A DNA stretch of 44,342 nucleotides from positions 1-44,342 of IMG/VR virus record IMGVR_UViG_2547132254_000004. One strand, 5' to 3'. The notes below the pieces were generated by a model, which was given only the letters and a program-made list of their open reading frames with translations, was not told the DNA's origin and made no database searches. This document shows, piece after piece, positions 1-20,394 of the stretch. Positions within the stretch are counted from its first letter, which is position 1, and every line of letters starts with the position of its first letter. The translations under genes and the position numbers were made by a program. Source of the DNA: a virus. Lineage: Duplodnaviria; Heunggongvirae; Uroviricota; Caudoviricetes.

Positions 1-1209
1 ATGTCGGTTTTTCATAACTGGCTGCTTGATATCGCAAGCGGGAATTACTTTATCTACATCAAACGCCTTTCTGCAAACGACACAGGCGCAACAGGTGGCC
101 ATCAGGTCGGACTTTATATCCCCTCAAATATCGTTGAAAAGCTTTTTCCATCTATCAATCATACTCGCGAACTGAACCCTTCAGTCTTCCTTACTGCGCA
201 TGTATCATCCCATGATTGCCCTGATACCCAAGCACGCGCAATTTATTACAACAACCGTTATTTTGGTAAGACCCGAAACGAAAAAAGAATTACGCGCTGG
301 GGGAGAGGAAGTCCATTACAGAACCCTGAAAATACAGGAGCCCTCACAATTCTTGCTTTCAGGTTAAACGAACAGAACACTGACTGTTCCGAGGTAGATA
401 TATGGGTCTGCGTCAATCCCGATGAAGAGGATATCATCGAGTCTGCTATTGGCGAAATCATACCTGGAACCCTAATTTCCGGCCCTGCCGGACAAATTTT
501 GGGCGGATTGTCTCTTCAGCAAACTCCAGTAAATCATAAATATGTTATTCCTGAAGACTGGAAGAAGCGTTTTCCTTCTGGAAACGAAATTATTCAATAT
601 GCTGCTGGCCATTATGCTAAAAACTCCAAGGATCCAGATGAGCAACTGATTGACCGTCGGCGTGTCGAGTATGATATTTTTCTACTCGTCGAGGAATTAC
701 ATGTTCTTGATATTATTAAGAAAGGGTTCGATTCTGTAGATGAGTTTATTGCATTAGCCAACTCTGTCAGTAATCGACGTAAATCAAGGGCAGGTAAATC
801 ACTTGAACTTCACCTAGAGAAGCTTTTTATCGAGCACGGACTACGGCATTTCTCCACTCAGGCAGTTACTGAAGGTAATAAAAAACCAGATTTCCTGTTT
901 CCTTCAGCAGAGGCATATCATAACGCTGAATTTCCTGTAGAAAACTTACGTATGCTGGCAGTAAAGACCACCTGCAAAGATCGCTGGCGTCAGATACTGA
1001 ATGAAGCAGATAAAATCCATCAGGTACATTTATTTACGCTGCAAGAAGGTGTTTCTTCAGCACAATACCGAGAAATGAAAGATGCGGGTGTCAGACTCGT
1101 TGTACCATCAACTTTACATAAAAAATACCCAGAAGCAGTTAGAGAAGAATTAATAACGCTCGGAGCATTCATTACTGAGCTGATAGAACTTTACACTGAA
1201 CTATCATAG
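1..1209 (+). CDS. ecoRIIR: Type II restriction endonuclease, EcoRII family (CCWGG-type)
   Basis: 402-aa ORF starting at ATG pos 1; N-terminus MSVFHNWLL...YIKRLSANDTGATGGHQVGLYIP and overall length match my recollection of R.EcoRII; convergent with a Dcm-type methyltransferase. Identity from memory, not a search. Confidence 0.85.
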   Translation: MSVFHNWLLDIASGNYFIYIKRLSANDTGATGGHQVGLYIPSNIVEKLFPSINHTRELNPSVFLTAHVSSHDCPDTQARAIYYNNRYFGKTRNEKRITRWGRGSPLQNPENTGALTILAFRLNEQNTDCSEVDIWVCVNPDEEDIIESAIGEIIPGTLISGPAGQILGGLSLQQTPVNHKYVIPEDWKKRFPSGNEIIQYAAGHYAKNSKDPDEQLIDRRRVEYDIFLLVEELHVLDIIKKGFDSVDEFIALANSVSNRRKSRAGKSLELHLEKLFIEHGLRHFSTQAVTEGNKKPDFLFPSAEAYHNAEFPVENLRMLAVKTTCKDRWRQILNEADKIHQVHLFTLQEGVSSAQYREMKDAGVRLVVPSTLHKKYPEAVREELITLGAFITELIELYTELS

Positions 1210-1214
1210 GCTGA

Positions 1215-1237
1215 CTCCCGGCTTAAAAGGCCGGGAG
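1215..1237. terminator. Inverted repeat between the convergent R and M stop codons (possible bidirectional terminator)
   Basis: CTCCCGGC-N7-GCCGGGAG stem in the 34-bp gap between stops at 1209 and 1244; no clear U-tract. Confidence 0.4.
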
Positions 1238-1243
1238 GTGTTC

Positions 1244-2677
1244 TCAAGGCTGCCCAGTCTTACCAGCATCAGCAGAAACAGCTTTGAGGATATAGGGTTC
1301 CAGAAGTCTGGCAACGGCTTCAAATACTGGCACCACAACGGAGTTACCGAACTGCCGATATGACTGAGTATCTGAAACCGGAATACGGAATGGTTTCCCT
1401 CCAGGTTTTTCAAACCCCATAAGGCGTGCGCACTCTCGGGGAGTCAGCCTGCGTGGTCGACGAGCCTGGTTACTCTCATTCATAAAGTCAGCCTCTCCCG
1501 TTGCCATATCCCAACCACGATCAATAAGAATTTCTGATCCGTCTTTGTGATATCTGGCAGAAAGTGTGCGTGCAATGCTTTCCTTATTCTCAGGATTGAC
1601 CAACCCAAAGCCAAAACCATTCCCCTTGGCTGCATGCTTTTTGGCGTAGTTATAAAGGTACTCCCATAGTTTTGGCGTAAGTATATATTTACTGTCGACT
1701 ACAGGCTCCAGCAATTCACCAAATGATGGGCGGTGTTCCGGATAAAAACGACTGATATCACGCAAGGTAAACCCCTTGTGAATATTCAGATCTCGTCTAA
1801 ATCCGACCAGAACAATGCGTTCACGATGCTGAGGCAAAAAATGCTTCCCATCGATAATCTTTGGATCGTTTTTTCCCATTTCTGCAGCATCGGCAACTTC
1901 GTAGCCCAGCTCGTCAAGGGTCTCCATAATGACTTTGAAAGTTTTACCCTTATCATGGCTCTTCAGATTTTTGACATTTTCCAGCACAAAAATTGCCGGT
2001 TTTTTTGCTCGTATAATACGTGCCACGTCAAAAAAAAGTGTTCCTTGTGCTTCACATTCAAAACCATGCGCACGACCAAGTGAGTTTTTCTTACTAACAC
2101 CAGCAAGGCTAAATGGCTGGCACGGGAACCCCGCAAGAAGCACATCATGATCCGGCACATGCTCATCAATATATGCATAAGCATCCGTTTCCAATACATC
2201 GGTTTTATCACTCAGCGTGACTTCCCGAATATCGAGATTGAATTTATGCACCTGTTCATCGTTAAACCAGTTGGCCTTGTATGTACGCACAGCATCTTTA
2301 TTCCATTCACTGGTAAAAACACACTGGCCTCCAATGGCCTCAAAACCTTTCCGTATCCCTCCAATTCCAGCAAATAAGTCAATGAAGCGGAAAGCATATT
2401 CCGGATGGTTTGCAGGTGGTTCTGGTAGCATCTTACGCAGAAGAGACTCTTCTACTGAAGTCAACGATTTTGGTAAACACTTGCCATTAATCCAGCGGTT
2501 AATGGTTTCACGGCTCCACTCATTTTTTCCGACTTTTCTCAGTAATTCAGCCACATACTTCTGATCATAGATTTCCAGCACTTTCTCGATAAGCTTTTTA
2601 TCATTTTCCTGTCGCAGCTTTTCTTCCGCCTCGGCTTCCTTCAGCAGATGCTGTGCCAACACTTCAAATTCAGACAT
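1244..2677 (-). CDS. ecoRIIM: DNA-cytosine C5-methyltransferase, M.EcoRII/Dcm family
   Basis: C5-MTase motifs [26 protein letters not shown]. Start placed at ATG 2677 (MSEFE..., 477 aa) preceded by GGAGG; track ORF extends 14 codons further to 2719. Confidence 0.9.
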
Positions 2678-2984
2678 AATTCCTCCAAGGGGTCTAATGG
2701 GTGAAACTTTATCACTCATTCAACCCAGAAGGAAATGTTTTATCTGGATATTTAAACAGTGACTACAACGTAATCTAGCACTGGTGATGCTTTGTTAGGC
2801 ATAGAGAATCATTCTATATACGACTAATGACAGAAAAACAGCAGACAAGTAGTTTGTTCATAAATTAACGCATACTACGTGCCTACGGTTTTCGAGACCG
2901 GTCCAATCATCAAACGAAACATAAAATTAGCTCACATTATGAGGAAAAGTATCTTTTTTGTACTCTGTAAATTCAAAGGCTTAG

Positions 2985-3971
<987 letters not shown>

Positions 3972-4404: not shown

Positions 4405-5470
4405 GTGACGAATGTTTTTGGGAAGAGAATATATACCCTGGATGTTCTGAGAGGATTTGCCGCACTTTCCGTTGTGTTATGGCATTGGCAACATTTTTTT
4501 ATGAAAAAGAATGCTGCATCTGACATAATCATAAACCGCCAACCTTTTTATGAATTTTTTCCGTCTTTTATCATTACGGTTTATATGCTGTCGAATTGTT
4601 TTTTATGATTTCTGGATTCATATTTTTTTATCTATACGCTGACAATATACACAGCAATAAAACCTCAGCAAAAACTTTTATAGTTAACCGTGTCAGTAGA
4701 TTATATCCACTTTATATATTTACATTTGCTGTCGTGGCAATATTACAAATTATTTTCTTTAAAAGTCATAATTATTTTTTGTTTATCCTATGAATGACAT
4801 TTACCATGCCATTCTGAATTTATTGATGATTCAATCATGGGGATTTGAGCGAGGTTGGTCCTTCAACGCCCCGACATGGTCCGTGTCGATTGAAGTACTT
4901 ATGTACATGATATTTTTTATATTATGCAAGTTCACATCAAAAACAACATTCATATCAATTTTAATAGTTGCATTATCGTACTACTTTTTCAAAATTAACA
5001 ATCCCATAATGATCGGCGCATTCTCTTTCTTTATTGGTGGTCTGACTTATAAAATTACGATTGCGGCCATAAAAAATATTAGCGCAAAGTTATTTTTTAT
5101 TTTTGCTTGTGTTTTTCTATTGATCTCATGGGGAGTTATATTTACCCTGCAAGTAGCAGATATATTCTCAATTATCTTATTCGGATTTACCTCCATAATC
5201 TTTTTCCTTGTATCAATTAGCGCAATACGAAACGATTTTGGGAAAAAAATTGAATGGTTGGGCGATATCAGTTATTCATCTTATCTTTTACATTTTCCTT
5301 TGCAAATCATTGTTGTTTATTTAGCTGACAAGATTGGCTATGGACGCGATCTTTTTTACAGCCCCAAGGTATTCATTTTATTCATGCTTACATTAATGGC
5401 AATTAGCTATATGTCATATATATTCATTGAAAAACCATCGCAACAATTCATCCGAGATAAATTTCATTAA
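4405..5470 (+). pseudogene. Acyltransferase family 3 (O-antigen/LPS acetylase-like) gene split over three frames
   Basis: Track ORFs 4405-4608, 4596-4793, 4790-5470 lie in three frames and concatenate to ~358 aa with N-terminal LDVLRGFAALSVVLWH and a WSVSIEV motif; highly hydrophobic; both junctions at T6 runs; GTG start at 4405 preceded by AAGAGG; AT-rich. Confidence 0.6.
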
Positions 5471-5730: not shown

Positions 5731-6171
5731 TTACTCAGCGAAGCACGGTTCATCCGGCCACTCAAAATCCGGTGCAATGCTGGTATCTGTTGCCGTCACA
5801 GCCTCGATATAATCCAGCACAACGTTAAGTCGGGTAGTTTCTTCTTGCGTCAGTTTGCGCCCGGCCTGCAGCTTTAACTGAATCACGCTGATATTGGCCA
5901 TTGCTGCGTCTATCAGCGACTGTTTTTTCTGTTCAGCGTCAGCTACCAGTTCATCATGAGAACGTTCCGGAGGGAGCGGCGCAGTAAATACCCCGTCTGA
6001 ATACCCCCAGCCGATTCCGGGATGCTCACTGATATCAGAAATATCAATGAGCTGCTGATTATCCGGCACTGTGAATTCAGCCTCGCCATCCCAGACAATG
6101 ACATTCACAACCATCCCATTTTCAATAACTGCATATGACGCATTCATTATGCAAACTCCTCGATAATACAA
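5731..6171 (-). CDS. Tail fibre assembly protein (Tfa/Mu U-like)
   Basis: 146 aa directly downstream of the tail fibre gene on the minus strand; sequence typical of enterobacterial prophage Tfa proteins. Confidence 0.75.
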
Positions 6172-7073
6172 ATCCCAGCAGCACCTTTCCCGCCTGTCAT
6201 ACTGGTTCCGCTATAACCGGCATCGTATGCGCCACCGCCACCTGAACCATATGCCTTACCACTAACACCACCGCCAGCGCCTGCGCGTCCACCGCCCCCC
6301 CAGTACGATGTTCCGCCTTCACCGCTGACGCCGATATTTCCGGACTGACCGTCGCCTCCATTTCCACCAATGATGTTGATACCGCCAGTACTTGGCACAC
6401 CGCCGTTACCACCGTTCGTGTTTGTGACTCCTGATTTTCCACCACCTTCACCACCAGGGGCTATTACCGATCCGAACGAGCTATCACCGCCCTTGAGGCC
6501 GTTCGTCGCACTAACGCCGCCGGCCCCACCTGCGCCGATAGTGACAGGATAACTATCCTTCGTCAGGATCAGCGTGGTGATTACTGTCCCACCTGCCCCG
6601 CCGCCAGCACCGAAAAACGTTTCATTATTGGATATAGCCTTACAGCCGCCCCCTCCGCCACCGCCGCCCGTTATTGTGACCCTGATCCGTTTTGTTCCTG
6701 GCGTCGGGGTGTACGTACCTGATGACGTGAAAACCCGGGTATTCACCCAGCGTCCCACGTATCCGCTTGTATCCCCCAAACCAAGGTTTTCGAGAGCCGT
6801 TTTCACCGTGCCGTCCGATTTGATATCGCCAAACGGATTCTTGCGGCTTAACAGCAGCGCGCGAAGTGCGGTAAGCAACTGATCGTGCCGCCCCTTCTCC
6901 AGACTGGCACCGGATGCCTCCACAACACTGCAAAGTTCCTCCTGCAACATGTCAAAGTAGTCATCATCCAGATCGGTGGCAGGCGTGCCTGTCTGGGGGT
7001 TACCACGGGTAAAACCGTTCTTACCCGCGCCGAACTTATCCTTTTGCGCGGTTTTCGTGTCTATACGATGCAT
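6147..7073 (-). CDS. Tail fibre protein with glycine-rich repeats
   Basis: 308 aa with ATG start; long GGxGG tracts including a G8 run; last gene of the Mu-like baseplate/fibre block. Confidence 0.75.
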
Positions 7074-7076
7074 GGA

Positions 7077-7661
7077 TTACTCCGGATATTTAAAAATTAC
7101 GTAGGTATGCGACGGGCAGAGTTTGTTAAGCACGCACTCGATAACGGTGTCCCCCCAGATACGCAGTGCGGAATCGCAGGGATCGCCACATGTCATCCAG
7201 GTGGTGTTGGTGGCAGCTGGCATATTGACCTGCCAGTAATACCGCCATTCCGGCGCATTCACCGCGTCAGTACAGGCCGATGAGCAGGTGAACGTGCTTT
7301 TGTCGTATCGCGTGATGGTGGCATCTGGTCTGCCCAGGGCAGCAAGCTGCGCAAGGTAAAAATCCTCATTGATGCCGCCCGCCAGGTTAACCTTCGCATC
7401 CAGCCGTTGCTGACGCTGGCGAAGGGTCTGCGTCCCTGCCGGAATACATTCATCCGGCAGGCCGCACAGACGCTCCCAGCGGTTTATCAGTTCGGTGGTG
7501 GTGCGCGGATCCAGCTCCCGCATCAGGGCATCCGCACGCTGATGAACGCGGGTTAATGACGGTGCCGCACCGGCAATCGCCGGATCGCTGGCTGACCACG
7601 CCGGACCGGGGGGCAACAGTGCCGACAACAGACGGATGTAATCATCGTTTGTCACGTCCAT
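7077..7661 (-). CDS. Mu gp48-like tail protein (YmfQ/DUF2313 type)
   Basis: 194 aa in conserved order between the baseplate J-like gene and the tail fibre; recalled similarity to e14 YmfQ-type proteins. Confidence 0.65.
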
Positions 7662-8710
7662 GAAATCGTCCCCAGTACCGCCAGTTCATTTTTTGCAATG
7701 GAGATATTGTCTGCCGGTGCAAGCAACTGATGGCTGTATTCCCCGTTCGCACCGGAAATCGCCTCACTGATACGCGATACCTTCAGTTCTCCCTGCGGAT
7801 AACCATCACGCAGCAGGAACGAACGCAACTCCGCGGTGATGGCAGCCCGTATTTCCGGTGTGTCCGGCGTCACACGGATATGAAAATCCACCGTATGTGC
7901 CACCGGCCTGAACACATACAAATCAGAGCCTGCCACCGGGGCCAGTGGCCCGATATGTTGTCTTGCCGCCGTTTCCGTTGATTCTTCCGGAATGGGATTA
8001 ATCAGGTCACTGCTGGCAATCATCACACCGACAGTCCCCGTTCCCATCCAGTGTCGGTATGTCCATGCGCGGGTAATGCCAGGCACTTCTTTAGCCCAGA
8101 CGACATAGTCCCCGTCAGCCCCGCCCTGCGGCGTCCAGTAATACCGCTCAATGACGCGGGCGCGCCACGTTTCCAGCTCTTCAGTATCAAATCCGCCTGT
8201 CAGGGTGTCAGCCACACCGGAAGACGGCAGACCATTCACCGGCGTGACCAGGATTAATGCCGTACCGTCGTCAGCGTTACCGACCGCACCTGCACTTGAG
8301 CAGGCGATCGGCACGCGCAGGACACCACCGGAGCTGATTGCATCGTCAGTTGTCGTGTACTGCACCAGGTCATCGCGCTGAATAACACTCCCGGCAGTCA
8401 CCTTCAGGCCATCGCTGACACCTTCCCAGCGCATATACCCGCTGGCAACCGTGGCTCCCTTACGCGGACACCGTTTCATCGCAGCATGTCGCGCCAGCCA
8501 GAACTCATCGCACAGGTCAGGCAGCATGTTCATTGCCAGATAATCGATGTACCCGTAAACCGTATGCAGCGCCGCCGCATACACCTTTGCCCGCACGTCT
8601 TCATCCATGCGCCGGAGCGTGTCGCTGACGTCCAGCCTGGCGAATAAATCGTTACGGAGCATACTGATATTTTCTGCCAGCGTCGGGCGCTGAAATTCAC
8701 TGTCCGCCAT
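7652..8710 (-). CDS. Baseplate J-like protein (Mu gp47-like)
   Basis: 352 aa, translationally overlapping both neighbours; position and sequence consistent with the baseplate J family. Confidence 0.75.
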
Positions 8711-9125
8711 GCGTTATCGCACTCCACAGATCATCAAAAGAAATCATTACCGGTCCGTCACGACGCCAGAGAGTGATACTGTTACCCAGTTCATTAATCC
8801 CGGTGCGGCGGATATCCAGATCAATGCGGGACACCACGCCGTCATCAATCATCCATTGCAGGCATTCGCGGATATACCCCCTTACCGTCTGCACCAGTTG
8901 ATTGGTCAGTTTGCTGCGCTGAAGCAGCCACAGTCGGGAGCCGTAACGGTCATTCTGTACCGCAGGCCAGGTATCCCCCCACCATCCCATCGGGACGTCG
9001 GCATTGTCATCAGGCTCCGCCCGCCGCCAGGTAAACAGGGAAATCACCACGGCGCGGGTCAGCGGATCCAGCGGTGCGCTGGCGCAGGTGCGTTTACCGT
9101 TCACCGTCAGCCACAGTTCCATCAT
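8697..9125 (-). CDS. Mu gp46-like baseplate protein
   Basis: 142 aa in conserved synteny between the gp45-like and gp47-like genes. Confidence 0.6.
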   Translation of the reverse strand: MMELWLTVNGKRTCASAPLDPLTRAVVISLFTWRRAEPDDNADVPMGWWGDTWPAVQNDRYGSRLWLLQRSKLTNQLVQTVRGYIRECLQWMIDDGVVSRIDLDIRRTGINELGNSITLWRRDGPVMISFDDLWSAITHGGQ

Positions 9126-9670
9126 GCCTCCATCGCTTTATCAGGTTTGTCGGTGTTACTGCCCTGACCGTTCTCTCTGTGACGATGCCCGTTATAGGCA
9201 AGCCGCATCGCTGACATGGTGGTGCCGCCGGAGTCGCACAGGTCTTTCACCTGTCCGGTCACTTCAAGGTCCATTTCAAAACGTGCTTCAGGTGCATTGC
9301 GAAACGTGATCGTTTTACCTGCACCGTCCACCACGATCCCCTCCCGGGTCAGCGTCACGGACTGCCCCTGATCGTCATAGACAGCCACCTCACCCGTCTG
9401 CAGCCCTTTCAGGCGGTAGCGCCGGTCCGACACCGTAACAACCACCGCATGAGAACGATCGCCATCCGGAAACAACACCACCGCTTCCGCACCGCTGTTT
9501 GCCCTTGCGGTAAAACCGTAGGGTTCAAGATGTTCAACCCCGGCTTTGGGTTCACCGGCAATCAGGGACACATCCACGGTCTGACATTTCGTGGCGGCAC
9601 TGATGCTTTTCACCACGGCCCGCCCAATCAGGCCGAGGAGTTGTCGCTGCATGGCTTCAATCGTCCTCAT
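9122..9670 (-). CDS. Baseplate assembly protein V / spike (Mu gp45-like)
   Basis: 182 aa in conserved synteny; overlapping stop/start with neighbours. Confidence 0.65.
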   Translation of the reverse strand: MRTIEAMQRQLLGLIGRAVVKSISAATKCQTVDVSLIAGEPKAGVEHLEPYGFTARANSGAEAVVLFPDGDRSHAVVVTVSDRRYRLKGLQTGEVAVYDDQGQSVTLTREGIVVDGAGKTITFRNAPEARFEMDLEVTGQVKDLCDSGGTTMSAMRLAYNGHRHRENGQGSNTDKPDKAMEA

Positions 9671-10749
9671 CAGAACGGGTCCTCCTGTACTCTGGCTTTT
9701 TTCTTTTTCCGCGCGCCGGGGGCTTCGGGTTCAGGCAGATAAGCATCAGGTGGGCCGACTCGGATTTCCGTCAGGGTGCCGTTCTGGTCCTGAGTAAACG
9801 TGACTTCCGAGACAAGCAGTTCGGTATTGTCGAAACCACAGACCGGATCGAAGACAATCACCCGCTGGTTGGGCTGCCACAGCGTACCGTTACCCTGTCG
9901 CCAGCCCTGCACCACATAGGTGGTTTCATCCGTCCGCGCCGCCCGTTGCCGGGCTTCAAAGTCCGCACGGGCAATACAGCCTGCCCCCGTAGCCTGCCCT
10001 GTCTGCCTGATATACATCGGACGGTAACGGGCAATAAATGCGTCTTCTGTGCGGGCCCGCAGCGCGGTGGTGGTGGCCTCACCGAAATCATCGTCATTTC
10101 CGGCACGCTGCCCCGCCACCTGGTAAACTGAAAACCGCTCCCGGATACTCTTCTCCGTATCGCAGGAAAGGATGTTTTCCCCAAGTACCAGCGCGGTATG
10201 TGCCCGCGTTGAGCCAATACCGCCAATCACTAGCCTGCCGTGCGGGTCGTCGTAAGCCAGCGCCTGCTGCTGACCGAGTATTTTGTTGATCACCTCAATC
10301 ACCGTTTCACCGTGATCAGGCTGGACATCAGGAATAACACCAGACGGCGCACCGCTGTTCACCACCTCAATGCCGAAAGGCGCAGCAAGCGCCTGCGCAA
10401 TCTGAACCAGCGATCGTCCGTTAAACTGTGTCGGTTCGGCTGCACAGTCAATCAGGTCAGCGGTCAGACTACGCCCAGCAATACCGGTGCTGACCGAACG
10501 GGCATCGTAACGAACGGGAGTCGCCTCCACCCAGCCGGTGATCACCAGCTCATCACCAATCAGCACTTCCACTTTTGAACCGTTTTTAATACGCGGCTGA
10601 AGCGTGGTGATACCCTCATCTCCCGGCCACTGGCGGGTGATCTCCACACTGAAATCCCGCGTCAGCCGTTCAATACCGGCACCGATGCGCACCGATGTCC
10701 AGCCATTCCACTCCCGGCCATTTACCCGTAGCGTGACTTTATCATTCAT
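9670..10749 (-). CDS. Mu P (gp44)-like tail/baseplate hub protein
   Basis: 359 aa following the DNA circularisation gene in Mu order. Confidence 0.6.
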   Translation of the reverse strand: MNDKVTLRVNGREWNGWTSVRIGAGIERLTRDFSVEITRQWPGDEGITTLQPRIKNGSKVEVLIGDELVITGWVEATPVRYDARSVSTGIAGRSLTADLIDCAAEPTQFNGRSLVQIAQALAAPFGIEVVNSGAPSGVIPDVQPDHGETVIEVINKILGQQQALAYDDPHGRLVIGGIGSTRAHTALVLGENILSCDTEKSIRERFSVYQVAGQRAGNDDDFGEATTTALRARTEDAFIARYRPMYIRQTGQATGAGCIARADFEARQRAARTDETTYVVQGWRQGNGTLWQPNQRVIVFDPVCGFDNTELLVSEVTFTQDQNGTLTEIRVGPPDAYLPEPEAPGARKKKKARVQEDPF

Positions 10750-12074
10750 AGCACTGGCACCTTCAGAGGGATCACCGGCACAAAGCCGGGATGCGTAATG
10801 GCATTACGCCGGATAATGTCCGCGTCACGCGCCGCGTTATCAAACCAGGTCGCCGCCAGCACCAGCGCGGGTAAGACCTCATCCGGCGTGCGCTGAATGA
10901 TCCGTGCAGACTGTTCAAGGCGCGTGTTGATATCCGCATTCAGATCTGCTTTCACCCGGCGCAGCGCCAGAAACAGCGCATCACTGGTTGTACGGGACAA
11001 CTCCTTATCAATTGCCGTATTCAGTGTGTCGCGAATGTCAGTCAGTTCTTCCCACGTCGGCAGGTCAACCGTGTTTTTCACCGCCGGTGCATTGTTCAGT
11101 GCCGGATGCGTGACGGAAGGCCAGTCGGTGCTCTGCGCGGGTGTTGTTGACTGCCCCACTGCGGCATTCTGCATCACCGCGGAAATTGTTGGCGCAGGCA
11201 ATCGGGTGATGGCATACGCTGCTTCGCTGATTGCGGTCGTACGAAGGGTGCTGGCAACCACGTTACGCTGCTGCGTTGCCGTGACGGTGGTTTTACTGTC
11301 CGTTTTCCAGACGCCGCGCGGTTGCAGATCGCTGCCGAGGCTGACACCAGAAAGCGTTTTGATCATGGTGACCAGGTCGCTGGCGTTACCATAAAGGCGC
11401 TTCCCGGTACGCCACATTTTCTGCACCTGCTCAACGAAATTTTTTCCTGACGATGGCGGCGGCAGAAGTACCGAGATATCCCCCTGCAACAGCCTGGCGG
11501 CATCCGATACGGCAGAATCCACCACTTTCATCGCATCAGAAACATACCCCAGCATTGTGCTGGCATTACCGATAACGTCGTTCTGTACGAAATCCGCCAC
11601 GCCATCGATACTGAAACCACTGAAGCTGTCACTGATGCAGTCATCCAGCGCAGAACAGGATGACATCAGCGTCTGCGCCGTCGCCGCGCCTGATGTGGGG
11701 TAAGAGAGTTCTCCCGCTTCGACAAACTTCAGGTCAAAGCGGACAATACGCCCTTCACTCTTCGATGTGCTGACCCGAACTTCCCCGTCAACACAGACTT
11801 TCAGCTCACCGTATGTCGGGTGGACAAGCGTGCCGGGACCGGGTTTATTCAGCGCTTCAATCAGGCGATCACGCTGGTCAAAGCAGTCATCTCCCACCAC
11901 ATAAGCCGTGATGGACGGGCGGAAAGTGATTTTCCCCAGGTCTTCGGTATAGGGTTTGTCGCGGTTCGGGTATTCGTGTGTTTCCACACGGCGACCGGTT
12001 CCCGCACTTTCTTCTTCAACCTTAAACGGCACGCCGCGAAATGACGCGTCCTGAAGTCTGTCTTTCCACGTCAT
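10746..12074 (-). CDS. DNA circularisation protein N (Mu gpN-like)
   Basis: Start placed at ATG 12074 (MTWKDRLQDASFRGVPFKVEEE...) with GGAG 7 nt upstream; the track extension to 12116 translates a terminator hairpin. Confidence 0.7.
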   Translation of the reverse strand: MTWKDRLQDASFRGVPFKVEEESAGTGRRVETHEYPNRDKPYTEDLGKITFRPSITAYVVGDDCFDQRDRLIEALNKPGPGTLVHPTYGELKVCVDGEVRVSTSKSEGRIVRFDLKFVEAGELSYPTSGAATAQTLMSSCSALDDCISDSFSGFSIDGVADFVQNDVIGNASTMLGYVSDAMKVVDSAVSDAARLLQGDISVLLPPPSSGKNFVEQVQKMWRTGKRLYGNASDLVTMIKTLSGVSLGSDLQPRGVWKTDSKTTVTATQQRNVVASTLRTTAISEAAYAITRLPAPTISAVMQNAAVGQSTTPAQSTDWPSVTHPALNNAPAVKNTVDLPTWEELTDIRDTLNTAIDKELSRTTSDALFLALRRVKADLNADINTRLEQSARIIQRTPDEVLPALVLAATWFDNAARDADIIRRNAITHPGFVPVIPLKVPVL

Positions 12075-12087
12075 ATAAACTCCGGAT

Positions 12088-12113
12088 ATAAAAAAACCCG
12101 CCGAAGCGGGTTT
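12088..12113 (-). terminator. Rho-independent terminator downstream of the lipoprotein moron
   Basis: Minus-strand reading GAAACCCGC-TTCG-GCGGGTTT followed by a T7 run, 14 nt upstream of the gpN start. Confidence 0.6.
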
Positions 12114-12127
12114 CATTAAATTATCGC

Positions 12128-12805
12128 TTATCTAAAGTTACTTATTACCCGATACCTTATGCTTTGGTTACTCGCATCAAGTACTTCGAATTTAGCCCCT
12201 TTATAGCCAATTGTTTTAGACTCCGCGAGATCATACTCAACATCGTTGTTGAAGGCCGGGCGTGCTGTATTCGATGAAAATTCACGATATCCAATGTTGA
12301 TTTTGTTTCCGACCCTTCCGTTGTAAAGCAGAGCTTGCTGGAAAGATGAATCACCACTGATATTCAGAGTAACCTTTTCGATAGGCATGTTAGTTTCACA
12401 GTTGGTAACACCGAAAACTGTTATTACACATAAGGCATTCTTTTTCTTTTCTACCATGATGCCCTGCCACATATCGGCAAGGGCTGCCTTTTCCACATTG
12501 GCTGAATCAGCACCGTTTGTGAGAAAGTAATAATCAGCCTTGTTATCCTCACCAACCTTTTTCAGCATCCCCGGAGTGATCGTATACGCCCAGGAAATTC
12601 TCGCAGGAGCATTAACCTTCAGACCTTCAAACCTCTGTGACACCCCCTGCTTAATCATTGAATCACCGACATAAGCTGTATTAATGCTTCCTACAGGAGG
12701 TTCACTATAATTTTCTGTTTTTGGTAAATAATTGTACTTCGGAGAGGTACATCCCCCGAGTAAAAGAGCCATGCCGACAACTGAATAAATTGTTAAGACT
12801 TTCAT
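12128..12805 (-). CDS. Predicted lipoprotein, function unknown (moron inside the tail operon)
   Basis: Start placed at ATG 12805 (MKVLTIYSVVGMALLLGGC...) preceded by a purine-rich RBS; signal peptide with LLGGC lipobox; 225 aa; AT-rich by eye; sits between tape measure and gpN, a junction normally contiguous in Mu-like tail clusters. Confidence 0.6.
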   Translation of the reverse strand: MKVLTIYSVVGMALLLGGCTSPKYNYLPKTENYSEPPVGSINTAYVGDSMIKQGVSQRFEGLKVNAPARISWAYTITPGMLKKVGEDNKADYYFLTNGADSANVEKAALADMWQGIMVEKKKNALCVITVFGVTNCETNMPIEKVTLNISGDSSFQQALLYNGRVGNKINIGYREFSSNTARPAFNNDVEYDLAESKTIGYKGAKFEVLDASNQSIRYRVISNFR

Positions 12806-12886
12806 ATCCCTATTCCCATCATTAAAGTATCGGACTAATCCTACCAAGAACCTGCTAAACGACAAAACCCGTGTTTAAGCGGGGTA

Positions 12887-14728
12887 TCAGCCCCCCATAC
12901 CAAATCGGGTGTAGCCAACGTCGTGATTCACGTCGATACCGCTGGATCGCGTTTCCATAACCCGCATACCCGGAGGCGAATTCACAAAAGATACCTTGAT
13001 CTCACCATCAACTTTTGGCGCAGAAGCTTTGTTAATCATGAAGGGATTCGGGCCTGTGGCATTAGAGGCGTTGTTTGACTGAGCCGGATCCACCGCCGGA
13101 TAAGGTGTGTATCCCCGCGCCGGTATTCCCGTCCCATAAGCATCATAAGCACCCGCGCCCCACTGCGCCGAGTTAATGGCATCGACCGTGTCACCGGAAC
13201 TGTCGGTAAGCCACTCAATAATTGGCTTCAGCTTGTCCCACATATCCTGAAACCACTTAACAACCGGCCCCCAGTTATTGATCACCATCCCCAGCGGCGA
13301 CCAGGCAAAAACTTTCTTAAGGAGTTCCCAGCCAGCCTCAAAATAAGGACCAATGGTTTCCCAGAGCTTCTTGAAATAAGGTCCGACAACATCCCAGTTA
13401 GTGATAATTAATCCCGCAGCCAGGGCTATCGCCGTCGCAATCATGCCAATCGGCGTCATCGACATGATCCTGCTGACAATACTGATGGCACTGCCCACGC
13501 CCATCAATCCCAGTTTCAGAATCGCAAGACCGGCAGCAAGCCCGACGACGCCGCGAATAACCCGGGGATTTTCATCCGCAAACTTCGTGAATTTTTCCCC
13601 CAATTCCCCCAGCCATTGCGTGATATTTTTGGCGTCACCAGAAAATACGCCGCCAATAGCCGCAAGGCCGTTAGTTGCGGTCCCCGTCATTGCCTCCCAC
13701 AGGTTGGACAGCGTACCAAGCTGTGCCTGAACACGTTTATTCAGGCTGGCCTGTTTATTCATCTTCTGCTGGATCTGATCGTAGCCATCCTTTCCTTTAT
13801 CGATTAGTGCATTGACCACCTGAAGGGTTTCGGCATCATCACCAAATATTGCCTTAAGTACACCTGTTCGCTTAACGTCGGTCAGTTTTCGCAGCTTTGC
13901 CAGTTGCCTGAACATGTTATCAAGACCGCCAAAACTTCCTTTGCCGTCAGTAAAATCGAGCTGTACCCCGAGTTTCTGGCGGGCCATAACTTTATTAACG
14001 TCTCTGATTTTCTTAACGCTTAACCCGGACTGGATAACTTTTCGCAGGGCATTACCTGCCGACTCCCCGTTCATCCCCATCTGATCCATCATGACGCTGA
14101 TGGGAGCAAGGCTCTGTGCAGCCTGAAGACCGTCCTTATTCACCATCTTCAGAACAGAACTGGTTTTAGTGAAGAAGGACAACATGTTGGTATCGTCAAC
14201 GCCCAGATAAAACGCCTTCTGGATAGTGTCGAACAGCCCCATCATGTCTTCTGACGCCGTTCCGGTAGCATCCTGCATCTTTGCAGCAAACTCAGCAGCC
14301 GCTTCCGGTGTTTTTTTCAGTTGTACCGCAAGATAAGCTGTCGCTTTACCCACACCACCCAGAATGTTTTCTGCCGGGATCCCCTGACGCACCAGCATCT
14401 GCATCATGTTCTGGAAATCAGCCGTTGTACCGGGTAGCTGGTTACCCAGGCCAATAGCCAGTTTATTGATGTCCTGAAAGCGCTTTCCAACCTCGCCGTT
14501 CGCATCCATCATGGCGACTTTCAGCCCGGTGGCGGCGTTTTCCTGATCGGCATAAGATTTCAGGGAAAGCGTCAGACCCGCTGCCAGTCCGCCACCAAGC
14601 GCCAGCCCACCCTGTGACGCTTCTTCCGCCTGGCGTTTAAATCCCCGGATTTTCTTTTGCATTTTCGACAGCGCGGGAGAAAGCCTGTCGACACCGGTGA
14701 TCAACGCCTTAAGCTCAAATTCAGCCAT
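12887..14728 (-). CDS. Tail tape measure protein
   Basis: 613 aa, Ala/Gly/Leu-rich with hydrophobic segments, directly downstream of the frameshifted chaperone pair. Confidence 0.85.
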   Translation of the reverse strand: MAEFELKALITGVDRLSPALSKMQKKIRGFKRQAEEASQGGLALGGGLAAGLTLSLKSYADQENAATGLKVAMMDANGEVGKRFQDINKLAIGLGNQLPGTTADFQNMMQMLVRQGIPAENILGGVGKATAYLAVQLKKTPEAAAEFAAKMQDATGTASEDMMGLFDTIQKAFYLGVDDTNMLSFFTKTSSVLKMVNKDGLQAAQSLAPISVMMDQMGMNGESAGNALRKVIQSGLSVKKIRDVNKVMARQKLGVQLDFTDGKGSFGGLDNMFRQLAKLRKLTDVKRTGVLKAIFGDDAETLQVVNALIDKGKDGYDQIQQKMNKQASLNKRVQAQLGTLSNLWEAMTGTATNGLAAIGGVFSGDAKNITQWLGELGEKFTKFADENPRVIRGVVGLAAGLAILKLGLMGVGSAISIVSRIMSMTPIGMIATAIALAAGLIITNWDVVGPYFKKLWETIGPYFEAGWELLKKVFAWSPLGMVINNWGPVVKWFQDMWDKLKPIIEWLTDSSGDTVDAINSAQWGAGAYDAYGTGIPARGYTPYPAVDPAQSNNASNATGPNPFMINKASAPKVDGEIKVSFVNSPPGMRVMETRSSGIDVNHDVGYTRFGMGG

Positions 14729-14903
14729 GTGTGCGTTTCTCCTGCTCTATCCTGTTTGCCTGACTGACCAGTAAGGGAATTTCACTGATCGGCATATTCA
14801 GCAATTCGAAAGGATTAATGCGCCAGTAGCTGGCGCAGTCAAAGAAGCGATCAGTGAGGTATTCAGCCGTCAGGCCTGGAGGAAAAAACCGGCCACAAGC
14901 CAC
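14721..14903 (-). CDS. Tail assembly chaperone frameshift extension (GT-like -1 frame)
   Basis: ORF overlaps the 3' end of the upstream chaperone ORF; the overlap contains the slippery heptamer U UUU UUC (minus strand, 14882-14888), so translation likely enters by -1 frameshift rather than from the track ATG. Confidence 0.55.
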   Translation of the reverse strand: MACGRFFPPGLTAEYLTDRFFDCASYWRINPFELLNMPISEIPLLVSQANRIEQEKRTHG

Positions 14904-15139
14904 GCCGCTGCATTCAGGTCTGCCGGAGACATCTGGTCGACAGAGCTTTGCGGCACTTTCGCCAGCCGCACAATGTATTTCGACACCACATGCGCCAGAA
15001 GTCTGACGGACTCATCCTGATTCATCTGGTAGGGATACCCCAGCTCGCGGACATCCTTCCCGGTGGGCTCATCAAACTCCAGTACGGAGAGTGTCTCGCC
15101 ATGAGCAGTAATCGGTTTCTTTAACTCAAGCTCTTTCAT
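14870..15139 (-). CDS. Tail assembly chaperone (lambda G-like / Mu gp41-like)
   Basis: 89 aa between tail tube and tape measure; ends ...LVAGFFLQA just past the slippery site. Confidence 0.6.
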   Translation of the reverse strand: MKELELKKPITAHGETLSVLEFDEPTGKDVRELGYPYQMNQDESVRLLAHVVSKYIVRLAKVPQSSVDQMSPADLNAAAWLVAGFFLQA

Positions 15140-15495
15140 TACTGGTAATCCCCTTCTTCACCGTGGAACTCAAGATCAACCGTGCCTTCTTCGGCATTAT
15201 GGTTCGCTTCGCCGTGCAGCCAGGCGGACGACAATACATAGACCTGACCGTTCGCCAGCTCGGCAGTGATGGTCATCTCATCAGACGAGGTGATTTTGCT
15301 CACCGGAAAATTCTTCGGCACCTTGAAGGTCCCTTTGACATAAGGCGCACGGTGAGTTTCCTTGCGGTCCACTGAACCGTCCAGGCCGATGATGTCATCA
15401 TTGACCGTCCTGTTCATGGGCACCTCAATGCCGCCGGTCAGCGATAGCTGCTGACCGTCAATTTTGAAATAACAGGTTCCCCCGATACGGGCCAT
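15139..15495 (-). CDS. Tail tube protein (Mu M-like)
   Basis: 118 aa immediately downstream of the sheath gene. Confidence 0.75.
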   Translation of the reverse strand: MARIGGTCYFKIDGQQLSLTGGIEVPMNRTVNDDIIGLDGSVDRKETHRAPYVKGTFKVPKNFPVSKITSSDEMTITAELANGQVYVLSSAWLHGEANHNAEEGTVDLEFHGEEGDYQ

Positions 15496-16991
15496 TATGC
15501 AGACTCCTCTGAATACTGAAGACGGAACTGGTTAACCACGGCAAAGACACGCAACTGGTTAACATAGTCAGGCGGGAACAGCGTGTTCAGGCGGTTCGGA
15601 TCGCTGGCATCACGCTCCACAGCCAGGTACTGCTTAAACAGTTCGTAGTTTTCCACGATCCCCGCACGCTCAAGCTGACGGTAGGTTGCCAGCAGTTCCC
15701 CTTTGATCACCGCCGGTGTGACAATCGCCTGACCGGGACCAAAGCGGGTACCGTCACTGGCAAGCTTGTGACGCCCGTACTTACTGGTAATGACGGATTT
15801 CAGTTTGCGCAGCACATACGCGCTGGTATGCAGCGTCTCGCTGTCGAGGTAGCTGTTATCCGCAACACCGTAAGCATTTTTCCTGTACGTGGTGACATCA
15901 CGCTGAATGCGCAGTACCCCGCTTTCGACATACGCCGTTGCCACGCCATGAGACAGCAGGGTCTGTTGTTCGGTCATCGTGAACCGTTTCCCCTTCGGCG
16001 CAGGCAGCATACCCACCAGCTCACCGGTCTGCGTGGGACGTGCCGGATCGTTGCGGATAAACACCGCTGCGCGGGCGGTACGGCTTGCCGCCAGTTCGTC
16101 GGCAGGCGTCTGGGTGTCTTTTTCGTACCCCGCCAGGGTAATGTGCTGCTGGTTAAACTGGTCACCTGCGGTCACCAGTTCTGACAGCGTGCCGATCTTT
16201 GCCGTATACACATGACCATACAGCTGACGCGCATAGCTCCAGCGACCGCTGGTATCGTTCATCTCGGTCACCAGCGTGTTAACGGAGGCCGTGTCGTTGA
16301 ACGGCAGACCGATATAATCAAACGGCTCATCCGCCATTGCAGCCACCGCGCCGGTGAGAACCGGAGCGCCCGTTCCGGCGGTCCCCGTCGCCACGGCAAT
16401 CTGTACGCCCGCTGGCAGCACTTCGCCCCCACCGAAGCCGTAGTAATTGAGGCTGACAGGAATTTCATTCCCGCAAAGCCCCTTATGACGCGCGGTCAGC
16501 GTGACAACACCAGCCGAAGATGAAGCTGTAAACGGCAGAGTCGGAACGGCATTGATGGCATCTTTGATACTGCTGGCAATCGTCGTGACGTTATCGCCGT
16601 TGGTCACCGGAGCCTGCACGCGGGTACGTCCCACATAGACATTCACCGTGCCGCTTTCGGTTGCTTCCCCGGTCACCGTCAGCGTAACCGTTGCCGCCGC
16701 GCCTGTGGCTTCCGGAACGGCAATCACATACAGCTCACCAAACGGGTCGGTCTGGCGATAAGCCTCGACCATACGCGCCAGCTGACTTCCCGCACCACAA
16801 ATCTGGCGTGCATAGTCTGCCGACGGCATCAGCACCAGACTGTTGGCAACAATCTCTGCACCGTTATTGGCATGACCAATCAGCAGCGATGCTCCGCTGT
16901 CCTGTGCAGTATTCGCAGCCTGGTTATCCATTTCCGCATAAAACAGCGGAACCAGCGTATTCGACGGAATGGTGTTAAAGCTTATCGTCAT
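15495..16991 (-). CDS. Tail sheath protein (Mu L-like)
   Basis: 498 aa with ATG start; position and sequence typical of contractile-tail sheath proteins. Confidence 0.85.
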   Translation of the reverse strand: MTISFNTIPSNTLVPLFYAEMDNQAANTAQDSGASLLIGHANNGAEIVANSLVLMPSADYARQICGAGSQLARMVEAYRQTDPFGELYVIAVPEATGAAATVTLTVTGEATESGTVNVYVGRTRVQAPVTNGDNVTTIASSIKDAINAVPTLPFTASSSAGVVTLTARHKGLCGNEIPVSLNYYGFGGGEVLPAGVQIAVATGTAGTGAPVLTGAVAAMADEPFDYIGLPFNDTASVNTLVTEMNDTSGRWSYARQLYGHVYTAKIGTLSELVTAGDQFNQQHITLAGYEKDTQTPADELAASRTARAAVFIRNDPARPTQTGELVGMLPAPKGKRFTMTEQQTLLSHGVATAYVESGVLRIQRDVTTYRKNAYGVADNSYLDSETLHTSAYVLRKLKSVITSKYGRHKLASDGTRFGPGQAIVTPAVIKGELLATYRQLERAGIVENYELFKQYLAVERDASDPNRLNTLFPPDYVNQLRVFAVVNQFRLQYSEESA

Positions 16992-17145
16992 CGGTGTTCA
17001 CCTTTTTATTCACGCGCCGGATATCACCCGCTGCTTCACGGCGCAGCCAGTAGTTGTTCTCATCAACATTTCGCCCTTCGGCGGGCAAAAGGTCGCCGCG
17101 GGCAGGGTCAGGCACTGACCGCCCTTTAACAGGTTTCACAAACAT
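16975..17145 (-). CDS. Small conserved tail-module protein (Mu gp38/DUF2635-like)
   Basis: 56-aa ORF (MFVKPVKGRSVPDPARGDLLPAEGRNVDENNYW...) below the track cut-off, found by hand; ATG at 17143-17145, stop overlapping the sheath start. Confidence 0.4.
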   Translation of the reverse strand: MFVKPVKGRSVPDPARGDLLPAEGRNVDENNYWLRREAAGDIRRVNKKVNTDDDKL

Positions 17146-17153
17146 GATGATCC

Positions 17154-17714
17154 TCAGGAAGGAAGGGGTATTTCGGTGTGATGTTCGATATCGCCGTCAG
17201 ACCCGTTACCGGGATCGAGATAATCAACATCAATCGCCAGCGTTCGCAGTTCATCCAGACTGTTCAGGTCATCCTGCTGGCGGGTATCGTCTTCGGTCAG
17301 CTCGCTGATGACCGAAAAATCGAACTGATAAATCAGCTCATGACGATTCAGATCCAGCAGCGTGCCGCCGTCATAGGTAATCGGGTTACCGCACGCTTCC
17401 GGGTTCCAGCCCAGCAGAGCCTTAAAGAGCATCTGCCGGACATCGTCCACCACATCATACGAGGCAAACTGACCGCGCTCATCACGCCCGTTACTCAGTA
17501 TGACAACCACGGAGAAGCCCTCTTTCAGCTCCTGCCAGTAGTCGGTCTGGCTTTTGTTTTCTCCCGGAGAATCATCACCCGGTACAACATATGCCGCCGG
17601 GAGTTTCAGCTTTCCGACCTCCGGCAGATTTTTGAACTGGGCCGCGCCTGCCACCCGGTTTTCAAAATACGGGCAGCGGGCACGCAGCGCAGCAATAACA
17701 GGCGTCAGTTTCAT
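17154..17714 (-). CDS. Mu gp37-like tail protein
   Basis: 186 aa, acidic, upstream of the sheath gene in Mu order; assignment by synteny. Confidence 0.45.
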   Translation of the reverse strand: MKLTPVIAALRARCPYFENRVAGAAQFKNLPEVGKLKLPAAYVVPGDDSPGENKSQTDYWQELKEGFSVVVILSNGRDERGQFASYDVVDDVRQMLFKALLGWNPEACGNPITYDGGTLLDLNRHELIYQFDFSVISELTEDDTRQQDDLNSLDELRTLAIDVDYLDPGNGSDGDIEHHTEIPLPS

Positions 17715-18217
17715 CTGTGTCGTCGCTCCGGCTTCAGTGATTTACGCAATTCCCGCGCCAGAAAATAGCGTGTCCAGCTGCGGTTCTTTTCAAGAGTTTC
17801 CACCATGAAGTTATTACGTGGAGCCAGTCGCCAGCCGCTGCCACCGGATGCACCACGATGATGACTACGACGACGTTTTGCTCCTCCCCGGACACCAAAA
17901 AACAGAAACGCCGGATAGAAGTCACCAGAGATCATCCGGTTCCCCTTCCCGTTGCGCTGGTTAGGGGCAATGCGTGTCATAAAACCGGCTCGCTTTTTAC
18001 TGGCTCTCGGCACCATATAACCAATCGAACGAGCCAGGCGTCCGGTCTGATAACCGGGGTTTTCACCCGGTGCCGACCGCGCACGGCGCATCACCAGCCG
18101 ACGGGCATCACGCATATGATGCTGCCCAATCGTGACAAACGCCCGCCGGACACGGGCGCGGTTAAAGCGCATCTCGGCGGGCTGCTGAACATCAACGTGA
18201 AAAAAGGGAGTCGCCAT
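17711..18217 (-). CDS. HK97 gp10-like head-tail joining protein
   Basis: 168 aa, basic; ATG preceded by GGAGG; lies between head-closure and tail genes. Confidence 0.45.
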   Translation of the reverse strand: MATPFFHVDVQQPAEMRFNRARVRRAFVTIGQHHMRDARRLVMRRARSAPGENPGYQTGRLARSIGYMVPRASKKRAGFMTRIAPNQRNGKGNRMISGDFYPAFLFFGVRGGAKRRRSHHRGASGGSGWRLAPRNNFMVETLEKNRSWTRYFLARELRKSLKPERRHR

Positions 18218-18602
18218 TGCTGCCTCCGTGACTCTGCCTACATTCGCCCAGCTCCGTACACTCCAGCAGCAGAAAGCGCCGCGCCCCGTTCAGATCGCGC
18301 TGACGTTTCACCCGGTACACACTGTCACCGCAGACCACCTCATAATCAGCGGTGATCCCCCGGCGGTAACGAATGGTGATGTAATGGGTGATGGCGTCCC
18401 CGGTCTGCGCGGTTTCCTGCCAGGTGGTGGCACTGGTCTGGATAACCTTCGCCCATGTCCGGAACGTAACCGGGTATTGAGGCTCCACGCCAAAGTTATC
18501 CGCGGGCATATCCACCCGCAGGCGGATCAGGACGCGTTTATTCAGTTCACCGGGGTCCGGCAGAATGTAGGTTGCGCTGGTCTGCGCCTGACGAATTTTC
18601 AT
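18192..18602 (-). CDS. Head closure / head-tail adaptor protein
   Basis: 136 aa in the conserved connector block after the major capsid gene. Confidence 0.5.
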   Translation of the reverse strand: MKIRQAQTSATYILPDPGELNKRVLIRLRVDMPADNFGVEPQYPVTFRTWAKVIQTSATTWQETAQTGDAITHYITIRYRRGITADYEVVCGDSVYRVKRQRDLNGARRFLLLECTELGECRQSHGGSNGDSLFSR

Positions 18603-18922
18603 TGCGGAAAGTACCTGTACGGGCCGACAAGCCAGCCAAAACTCTGCGGCATGTCGAGTTTCTCCACTTCCGTAACCGACGAGCGGTTTTCGTAAAAATG
18701 GCTGATAAGCATCAGCATCCCCAGACGAATATCATCCGTCAGGTGCAGCCCGTCCGGATCGCTCTCCGGAATGGTTTCATCCGGTGCATAGAGCTTCCGG
18801 TTCAGATACGTTTCCGTCCGCTTTTGCGCCGCACAGGCCAGCAGTTGCAGATGGCGGTCATCAGCATCGAAATCCTCATCCAGCCGGAGTTGGGCTTTAA
18901 TCTCTTCCATTGTCAGAAGCAT
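18599..18922 (-). CDS. Head-tail connector protein (gp6-like)
   Basis: 107 aa (MLLTMEEIKAQLRLDEDFD...), typical N-terminus of phage gp6-type connector proteins. Confidence 0.55.
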   Translation of the reverse strand: MLLTMEEIKAQLRLDEDFDADDRHLQLLACAAQKRTETYLNRKLYAPDETIPESDPDGLHLTDDIRLGMLMLISHFYENRSSVTEVEKLDMPQSFGWLVGPYRYFPQ

Positions 18923-18924
18923 AC

Positions 18925-19125
18925 TCAGCCCTCTTTACTGGTCGTGGCTTTTTTCTCTTTTGCCGCTTTACTGCTTTTTGCACTGGTTCCGCGCTCTGCT
19001 AACCCGGCCTGAAGTGCAATCTCCTGCACCCGGGCAGGAAGCGCCCCGTCGTCATACTCACCGGCCCGAATGACCTCAACACGCATACCGTCCGGTGACC
19101 ATTTCAGATCTTGTTTCAGGATCAT
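18925..19125 (-). CDS. Small hypothetical head-module protein
   Basis: 66-aa ORF packed between capsid and connector genes; Lys/Ala-rich C-terminus. Confidence 0.3.
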   Translation of the reverse strand: MILKQDLKWSPDGMRVEVIRAGEYDDGALPARVQEIALQAGLAERGTSAKSSKAAKEKKATTSKEG

Positions 19126-20380: not shown

Positions 20381-20394
20381 CGTATTTCTCCTGA

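Follow-up and report, generated by a model that had tools for sequence, protein, structure and literature searches.

Convergent EcoRII-type genes at the start of the window

The stretch of DNA analysed here, referred to as the window, is the whole 44,342-nucleotide IMG/VR virus record IMGVR_UViG_2547132254_000004 (Caudoviricetes). It opens with two convergent genes, which an original prediction made from the letters alone had taken for an EcoRII-family restriction endonuclease (R) and a C5 cytosine methyltransferase (M). We compared both genes with protein-family models, with published structures and with the classical EcoRII genes of the IncN plasmid pN3 (L003). By every sequence feature that could be tested the pair belongs to the EcoRII family, and it reads as the classic EcoRII restriction-modification system in a diverged but intact form. 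The features of the locus are collected in Table 1.

The R open reading frame (ORF) is full length and matches both Pfam domains of the family, EcoRII-N at residues 16–163 (E-value 4e–61) and EcoRII-C at residues 227–391 (E-value 2e–71). It aligns without gaps to the EcoRII structure PDB 1NA6 over residues 1–401 (E-value 4e–242), while an NCBIfam search gave no model matching R. Judged from these matches, the protein has the two-domain architecture of a Type IIE enzyme, with an N-terminal B3-like effector domain and a C-terminal PD-(D/E)XK catalytic domain. To a list of functional residues taken from the EcoRII–DNA co-crystal paper (PMC2770665) we added R88, the site mutated in 1NA6. All 28 of the 28 residues are identical in the window protein. 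They comprise the catalytic residues E271, D299, K324 and E337 in EcoRII numbering (window residues 269, 297, 322 and 335), the CC:GG readers K328, D329, R330 and N260, the flipped-base pocket R222, E225, Y226, F229, R265 and A266, thirteen effector-domain contacts (N28, H36, Q37, Y41, R81, Y85, K92, T93, R94, E96, R98, T100 and R101) and R88 itself.

The residue numbers had to be mapped with an offset of two, which gives the 28 matches, as against 1/28 without it, and this offset exposed an upstream start. The classical start, which yields a 404-aa protein, corresponds to an in-frame ATG lying 6 nt 5′ of window base 1 and thus outside the window. It can be read in the chromosome of E. coli AR_0369 (L001), a 100% match, where the R frame extends upstream as ATG-TAT-ATG (M-Y-M-S-V); the 1NA6 chain starts M-L-M-S-V. 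RefSeq places the start at the second ATG, as at window base 1, for which an AAGGG is better spaced.

For M, the longest ORF (1244..2719, minus strand, 491 aa) carries the Pfam domains DNA_methylase (PF00145, E-value 5e–78) and DNA_meth_N (PF18284, E-value 7e–27), in agreement with the predicted methyltransferase gene facing R. The protein falls in the NCBIfam subfamily NF007772 (927 bits versus a cut-off of 710). It keeps all six motif patterns that we checked, namely FxGxG (I), PCQ (IV), ENV (VI), QxRxR (VIII), TPRE and GN (X), at residues 102, 185, 233, 283, 412 and 444 of the 477-aa protein. Blocks of 40 residues over positions 281–400 are 95–100% identical to M.EcoRII of pN3, so the target-recognition region, as far as sequence can tell, matches that of the CCWGG-specific enzyme. 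The start used in RefSeq and in pN3 is the ATG equivalent to 2677, with GGAGG ahead of it. Further upstream in the same frame, the ATG at 2719 has no good ribosome-binding site and is also present in pN3; a longer isoform may begin there. The 14 codons between the two (window 2678–2719) differ from pN3 by two synonymous and three amino-acid changes. The earlier description of two full-length ORFs thus stands, whereas its choice of starts needs amendment for both genes: R classically begins before the first base of the window, and M is more likely to start at 2677 than at 2719.

Divergence from the plasmid-borne genes

Low identity to EcoRII and inactivating substitutions in catalytic motifs had been named beforehand as results that would speak against kinship and intactness. 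Neither was found. Protein identity to pN3 is 85.9% for R and 90.4% for M, reaching 95–100% across most of the central part of M, and no checked functional residue or motif is altered. At the DNA level the pair is ~80% identical to the pN3 genes and the synonymous distance (dS) is ~1.7, so that synonymous sites are saturated. R has a ratio of non-synonymous to synonymous substitution (dN/dS) of 0.048, and M one of 0.034. Saturation together with such low ratios indicates an old, separately evolving EcoRII lineage under strong purifying selection. The same values (dS ~1.7, dN/dS 0.03–0.05) speak against a recent escape from a plasmid and against a decaying copy.

Spacer, leaders and control regions

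The 34-bp spacer between the two stop codons contains, as originally described, an inverted repeat. It is perfect over 8 nt, with arms CTCCCGGC at 1215–1222 and GCCGGGAG at 1230–1237. The hairpin has a folding energy of –19.1 kcal/mol on the plus strand and –16.2 kcal/mol on the minus strand (z –3.0 and –2.6 versus shuffled sequences), and no T-run follows it on either strand. The same hairpin occurs in pN3. Since the remaining spacer bases have diverged, its retention there suggests more than chance, and it is probably a two-way transcript-end or stabilising structure.

Upstream of the M start, similarity to pN3 extends for ~82 nt (window 2678–2759) and then ends; plasmid matches to the query likewise stop at 2759–2761. 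This conserved leader would hold the M promoter and a putative operator. Upstream of R, ~57 nt are conserved with pN3, including a TATAAC/TATAAT hexamer, all outside the window. In AR_0369 the 234 bp from the end of ssrA to the start of R consist of a strong terminator (–22 kcal/mol, z –6.6) followed by this conserved leader. Inspection of that upstream DNA therefore agrees with the earlier remark that the R promoter lies beyond the window. The same remark had allowed for an unseen controller element, and this part needs qualifying: to our knowledge EcoRII-type systems have no separate controller protein, control being exerted through the repressor domain fused to M. Both that domain (DNA_meth_N) and the conserved M leader are present in the window, and repression of the M gene by its own N-terminal domain is thus a plausible arrangement. 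Autoregulation of M.EcoRII by repression of its own gene has been described (PMC12707154). Rfam detects no known RNA in or beside the pair except the tmRNA upstream.

In sum, the DNA similar to pN3 consists of the two genes and three non-coding elements (the hairpin, the M leader and the R leader), and the flanks beyond are unrelated. Because similarity stops at the leaders, the mobile unit measures ~2.8 kb.

Table 1. Features of the window, with positions in the 44,342-nucleotide stretch
Feature	Position	Strand	Basis and remarks
R gene, EcoRII-type Type IIE restriction endonuclease (predicted)	1..1209	+	402 aa from window base 1; Pfam, 1NA6, residue conservation
Spacer between convergent R and M stop codons	1210..1243	.	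34 bp, holds hairpin
M gene, M.EcoRII/Dcm-type C5 cytosine methyltransferase with N-terminal repressor domain (predicted)	1244..2677	-	477 aa; Pfam, NCBIfam, motifs
M leader	2678..2759	-	GGAGG ribosome-binding site; CCAGA...TCTGG inverted repeat; conserved with pN3
GIY-YIG gene, PD-T4-3/CMoRE	3081..3971	+	PADLOC PD-T4-3, PDB 9U75
Acyltransferase gene, Acyl_transf_3 family	4405..5470	+	three ORFs in the window; intact in AR_0369, 355 aa
SfII/SfI/SfV-like myovirus prophage body	5731..42010	.	nucleotide identity to phages; AR_0369 annotation; integrase domains
Prophage integrase	40838-42010		domain matches
attR	42869..42896	+	28-bp copy of ssrA 3′ end, CGGGTTCAACTCCCGCCAGCTCCACCAA

The pair is carried by a prophage and adjoins its attachment site

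The gene order in AR_0369 is ssrA, the restriction-modification pair, the GIY-YIG gene, the acyltransferase gene, and then tail, baseplate, sheath, head and portal genes. The ssrA gene directly upstream of the pair was confirmed as tmRNA by Rfam. The prophage is bounded by a 28-bp repeat of the ssrA 3′ end (attL and attR); attL lies within ssrA of AR_0369 (L001 19740–19767), 234 bp upstream of window base 1. The prophage body encodes tail-fibre assembly, baseplate, sheath, HK97-type head and terminase genes and an early region with an IS10 element. In nucleotide sequence its structural genes share 97% identity with those of Shigella phages SfII, SfI, SfIV and SfV and of coliphage vB_EcoM-689R6. 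A 43.7-kb circular record from strain CT01 (L002, NZ_CP081794.1) shows the order int, DinI-like gene, attP, R, M, GIY-YIG gene, acyltransferase gene and tail genes. This order makes the pair part of the phage genome, adjoining attP. The pair thus sits inside the element bounded by the att repeat, between attL/attP and the tail-fibre genes, and the proposal that it is prophage-borne cargo is borne out by both the circular form and the repeat.

Three records of 30–44 kb deposited as non-mobilizable plasmids (NZ_CP081794.1, NZ_CP081704.1 and NZ_CP104634.1) hold the pair at 99.8% identity. Of these we inspected NZ_CP081794.1, which is this phage in circular form and includes int, attP, R, M and the genes for head and tail. 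In strains CT01 and AH02 the cargo region is present on the chromosome as well. In CT01, two LexA-box-like sequences (CTGT-N8-ACAG) precede the DinI-like gene between int and attP (L002, about 11049–11095).

The first 12.9 kb of the window are 99.86% identical to AR_0369 apart from an IS421 that lies between tail genes of AR_0369 (L001 32951–34063) and not in the window. The IS10 in the early region spans 38380–39650, with RNA-OUT (Rfam, 98.8 bits) at 38380–38449 on the minus strand and a 402-aa DDE transposase ORF at 38442–39650. Two small int-proximal ORFs (42052–42348 and 42363–42830) have no Pfam match. Beyond attR the window continues with what we take to be the sequence that follows the ssrA 3′ end, as in K-12. 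A second integrase, of the P4/CP4-57 type, occupies 43101–44342, with Arm-DNA-bind_3, Phage_int_M and Phage_integrase domains, and its stop codon closes the window. Its position past attR indicates that the prophage stands in tandem with another island at ssrA.

Distribution and integrity across E. coli genomes

We surveyed 5,426 complete E. coli genomes. The window allele (at least 99% identity) was found in 263 E. coli records, mostly chromosomal, and the copies on E. coli plasmids are of the classical allele, at 80–90% identity. Among Enterobacterales plasmids 643 records matched, 466 of them in the 80–90% identity band of the classical allele. The att core, the 234-nt leader and R occur together in 249 genomes, a count that also admits copies with nothing more than the 28-bp att core in front; when a complete ssrA gene directly upstream of R was required, 129 genomes remained. 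R and M are free of any pseudogene flag in all nine related records inspected (9/9), and the six that were re-translated gave clean reading frames (6/6). The same R and M protein accessions recur in unrelated strains.

About half of the carriers lack ssrA in front of the att core that precedes R; what stands there instead is an arm of phage type, similar to that at attP of the circular form. We sampled this arm in L005 (4600–5000) and in L007, L009 and L011 (1–400 of each). Such copies may be tandem lysogens, rearrangements or insertions at a second integration site. In strain PigCaeca_1 the restriction-modification copy adjoins paoD and follows a gene for a 379-aa hypothetical protein (L012 45460–47158).

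Neighbouring cargo genes

The GIY-YIG gene next to the pair matches the PADLOC PD-T4-3 model PDLC04031 over its full length (E-value 2e–133) and the CMoRE structures 9U75 (E-value 1e–171) and 9U7U (E-value 4e–150) over residues 1–257. By these matches it is the known defence nuclease PD-T4-3/CMoRE, in line with the original view of the locus as a defence islet. CMoRE is a type IV nuclease that degrades DNA with 5-hydroxymethylcytosine (5hmC) or glucosyl-5hmC and leaves DNA with 5-methylcytosine (5mC) or plain cytosine intact; the paper that describes it makes no mention of prophages, neighbouring genes or genomic context (PMC12923530). Since it spares 5mC and plain cytosine, this nuclease is compatible with M and would cover phages that evade R.

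The pair is usually accompanied by PD-T4-3, and the full arrangement including the acyltransferase at 80% coverage was found in only 5 genomes. Many related prophages, among them those of O157:H7 and H10407, have PD-T4-3 but not the pair in the same position, beside pinE and the genes for tail fibres. In enterotoxigenic E. coli H10407 (L004 5626–8580) a gene for an AraC-family regulator and a fragment of a transposase (integrase-core) are found in the rest of the segment on the integrase side. The attP-proximal locus therefore looks like a variable cargo hotspot.

Three frameshifts disturb the two genes next to the pair in the window. At 3808 a run of A7 is shortened to A6, which puts the last ~15 codons of the GIY-YIG ORF out of frame and lengthens it to 3971, as compared with 257 aa for the AR_0369 copy (window 3081–3853). 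The acyltransferase gene is split by T7-to-T6 contractions at 4554 and 4774. Aligned to AR_0369, the first 6.2 kb of the window show two substitutions, three deletions of a single base and, where the aligned stretch ends, a difference of 3 nt. Both neighbours, the GIY-YIG gene and the acyltransferase, are annotated in each of the 30 E. coli records that match best. All three frameshifts (3808, 4554 and 4774) are 7-to-6 homopolymer contractions unique to the window sequence, a kind of change typical of errors in long-read assembly. The altered C-terminus of the window PD-T4-3 and the "degraded" acyltransferase are thus most likely homopolymer sequencing errors, or at most very recent changes, and we rejected real decay of the islet as the less likely explanation on these grounds. 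Of the neighbourhood as first described, the GIY-YIG gene is upheld and the degradation of the acyltransferase gene, which rests on two contractions absent from AR_0369, is doubtful.

Proposed function and alternatives

We consider it probable that the pair is a working Type IIE restriction-modification system of EcoRII specificity (CCWGG), which a temperate SfII/SfV-like myovirus carries as cargo and from whose prophage it is expressed. Its enzymatic activity, specificity, expression and defence phenotype are what we infer from the conserved features above. M would methylate C5 of the inner cytosine of CCWGG in phage and host DNA and, through its fused N-terminal repressor domain, would turn off its own promoter once the substrate sites are saturated. 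The R dimer would be kept inactive by its B3-like effector domains until these bind unmethylated CCWGG, upon which the PD-(D/E)XK domains would close around a further site, flip its central base pair and cleave ahead of the first C. With such an activation mechanism DNA would be cut only if it is unmethylated and has multiple sites. Effector-domain autoinhibition and multi-site cutting are documented for EcoRII (PMC2770665, PMC5766183); for the window enzyme, cleavage at /CCWGG, a need for at least two sites and a block by methylation of the inner C at position 5 are predicted from the conserved residues. A lysogen would in this way destroy phage or plasmid DNA that enters from hosts which do not methylate CCWGG, and the adjacent PD-T4-3/CMoRE would destroy hydroxymethylcytosine DNA that escapes enzymes such as R. 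The acyltransferase may change a surface receptor. The benefit is likely defence of the lysogen, and hence of the prophage.

Several observations weigh against this interpretation or narrow it. A dcm-like gene is present in 5,367 of the 5,426 E. coli genomes. Since dcm is near-universal, the bulk of the DNA that comes in from other E. coli is protected on entry, and the main targets of the system would be DNA from dcm-negative strains, from other genera or from laboratory hosts. The window contains 92 CCWGG sites versus ~130 expected (0.71), a mild under-representation, and there is no clear sign of long-term restriction pressure at these sites. As the site density of the phage (2.26 per kb) lies near that of the host flank (2.68 per kb), we draw no conclusion on CCWGG avoidance by the prophage. 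A sigma-70 consensus scan found no promoter reaching threshold in the R or the M leader, and both promoters are for that reason placed by conservation with pN3. Finally, among isolated phage genomes megablast found no match to the pair and tblastn reached 40% identity at best, and neither search returned an isolated coliphage record with a close homologue.

Other functions were weighed against the same data. The pair might be mainly an addiction module that stabilises the prophage by post-segregational killing, cells that lose it diluting M while residual R cuts their DNA. EcoRII is a documented post-segregational killer on plasmids (PMC3874152), and the pair lies at the very end of a mobile element. 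Killing of this kind calls for recognition sites left unprotected after loss, with no other methylase of the same specificity in the cell, and the lysogens checked do not fit this. A second place similar to M is found in 15 of the 15 top-listed lysogen chromosomes, where the 60–80% identity class is annotated dcm. Dcm attenuates host killing after EcoRII loss (PMC3874152) and should keep CCWGG sites protected once the prophage is gone, which makes addiction unlikely in these hosts. The idea of an addiction module, raised in the original prediction, is accordingly doubtful, since the lysogens checked also carry the gene that neutralises EcoRII killing. Alternatively, the pair could serve the phage itself, M pre-methylating progeny against plasmid-borne EcoRII in new hosts and R degrading competitor or unmethylated host DNA during lytic growth. 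The EcoRII-C/Vsr/Dcm module of phage KL3 has been interpreted likewise (PMC3091744), the classical allele is common on enterobacterial plasmids, and M would otherwise be redundant in dcm-positive hosts. Yet progeny from dcm-positive E. coli would be methylated already without the phage enzyme. The own conserved leaders and the upstream terminator resemble those of autonomously expressed cargo rather than a lytic operon, and the location is that of the lysogenic-conversion locus. We regard this use, too, as improbable.

A silent or decaying remnant, with R inactive or unexpressed and only M or neither gene functional, would fit the empty promoter scan and the frameshifts in nearby cargo genes. 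The dN/dS values over a saturated synonymous distance, the 28 intact functional residues, the unflagged copies in all nine related records and the recurrence of the same protein accessions in unrelated strains make it highly improbable. The nearby frameshifts are themselves homopolymer contractions confined to the source of the window.

Implications

If the pair functions as proposed, the generic RefSeq labels "type II restriction endonuclease" and "DNA cytosine methyltransferase" can be replaced by a specific EcoRII prediction, and an enzyme with EcoRII specificity, borne by a prophage next to CMoRE, would be present in ~5% of complete E. coli genomes. This would help to predict barriers to plasmid and phage transfer into the carriers, which are mostly livestock and human isolates, for example for DNA from dcm-negative cloning hosts. 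It also bears on the reading of 5mC methylomes in which Dcm and a second CCWGG methylase coexist, and on the prediction of host range in phage therapy.

More tentatively, the attP-proximal locus of SfII-like phages could be a swappable defence hotspot in which an old, phage-adapted EcoRII lineage and PD-T4-3/CMoRE form a two-layer check of cytosine state. R would then cut DNA with unmodified CCWGG, CMoRE would cut hydroxymethylated DNA, and 5-methylated self DNA would be spared by both. In Dcm hosts the pair would act as a filter against DNA of dcm-negative lineages or other genera and not as a classical self-contained system. The pair and PD-T4-3 co-occur; synergy between them is putative. 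Temperate phages with defence genes beside their attachment sites are a known pattern, of which this locus is one more example that opens no new question.

Comparison with known systems

A phage-borne module of the CCWGG type has a precedent in the Burkholderia P2-like phage KL3, which carries EcoRII-C/Vsr/Dcm (PMC3091744). Similarity of the KL3 enzyme to the window R is confined to the catalytic half (residues 169–395, 39% identity), and the module differs further in that it includes Vsr, has co-directional genes and belongs to a different phage family. The base-flipping enzymes PspGI and Ecl18kI, with CCWGG/CCNGG specificity and a single domain, have the catalytic core and base-flipping pocket in common with R (PMC2770665). 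They lack the effector domain and hence are not Type IIE enzymes, and their direct matches to R are weak (E-values 1.6e–4 for Ecl18kI and 3.8e–4 for PspGI).

The chromosomal Dcm of E. coli, which is paired with Vsr, shares with the window M the predicted target CCWGG, the fold, the NF007772 subfamily and the N-terminal domain; M matches the Dcm-type chain 3ME5 with an E-value of 5e–209 over residues 42–482. Dcm is, however, an orphan enzyme without an endonuclease, and its DNA is ~69% identical to the window M gene. The prophage, unlike the Dcm/Vsr pairing, comes without a vsr gene and would depend on that of the host.

The closest relative is EcoRII of the IncN plasmid N3 (R.EcoRII, PDB 1NA6/3HQF/3HQG, and M.EcoRII). 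There, too, the genes are convergent with a spacer of 33–34 bp that holds a hairpin, and the two systems share protein lengths (404/402 and 477 aa), domains, the checked residues and motifs, and short leaders. Of the residues in the window proteins, 14% differ in R and 10% in M. The carriers differ as well, a temperate phage at ssrA in the window and a conjugative plasmid for pN3, and all flanking DNA is unrelated.

As for the carrier, Shigella phages SfII, SfI, SfIV and SfV hold an O-antigen conversion cassette (gtr) between the tail fibres and attP. Their lysogenic-conversion locus has the same backbone as the phage studied here, with cargo in the same position as the window pair. Where the Shigella phages carry gtrABC, the phage described here, integrated at ssrA, carries the restriction-modification pair together with PD-T4-3/CMoRE and an Acyl_transf_3 acyltransferase.

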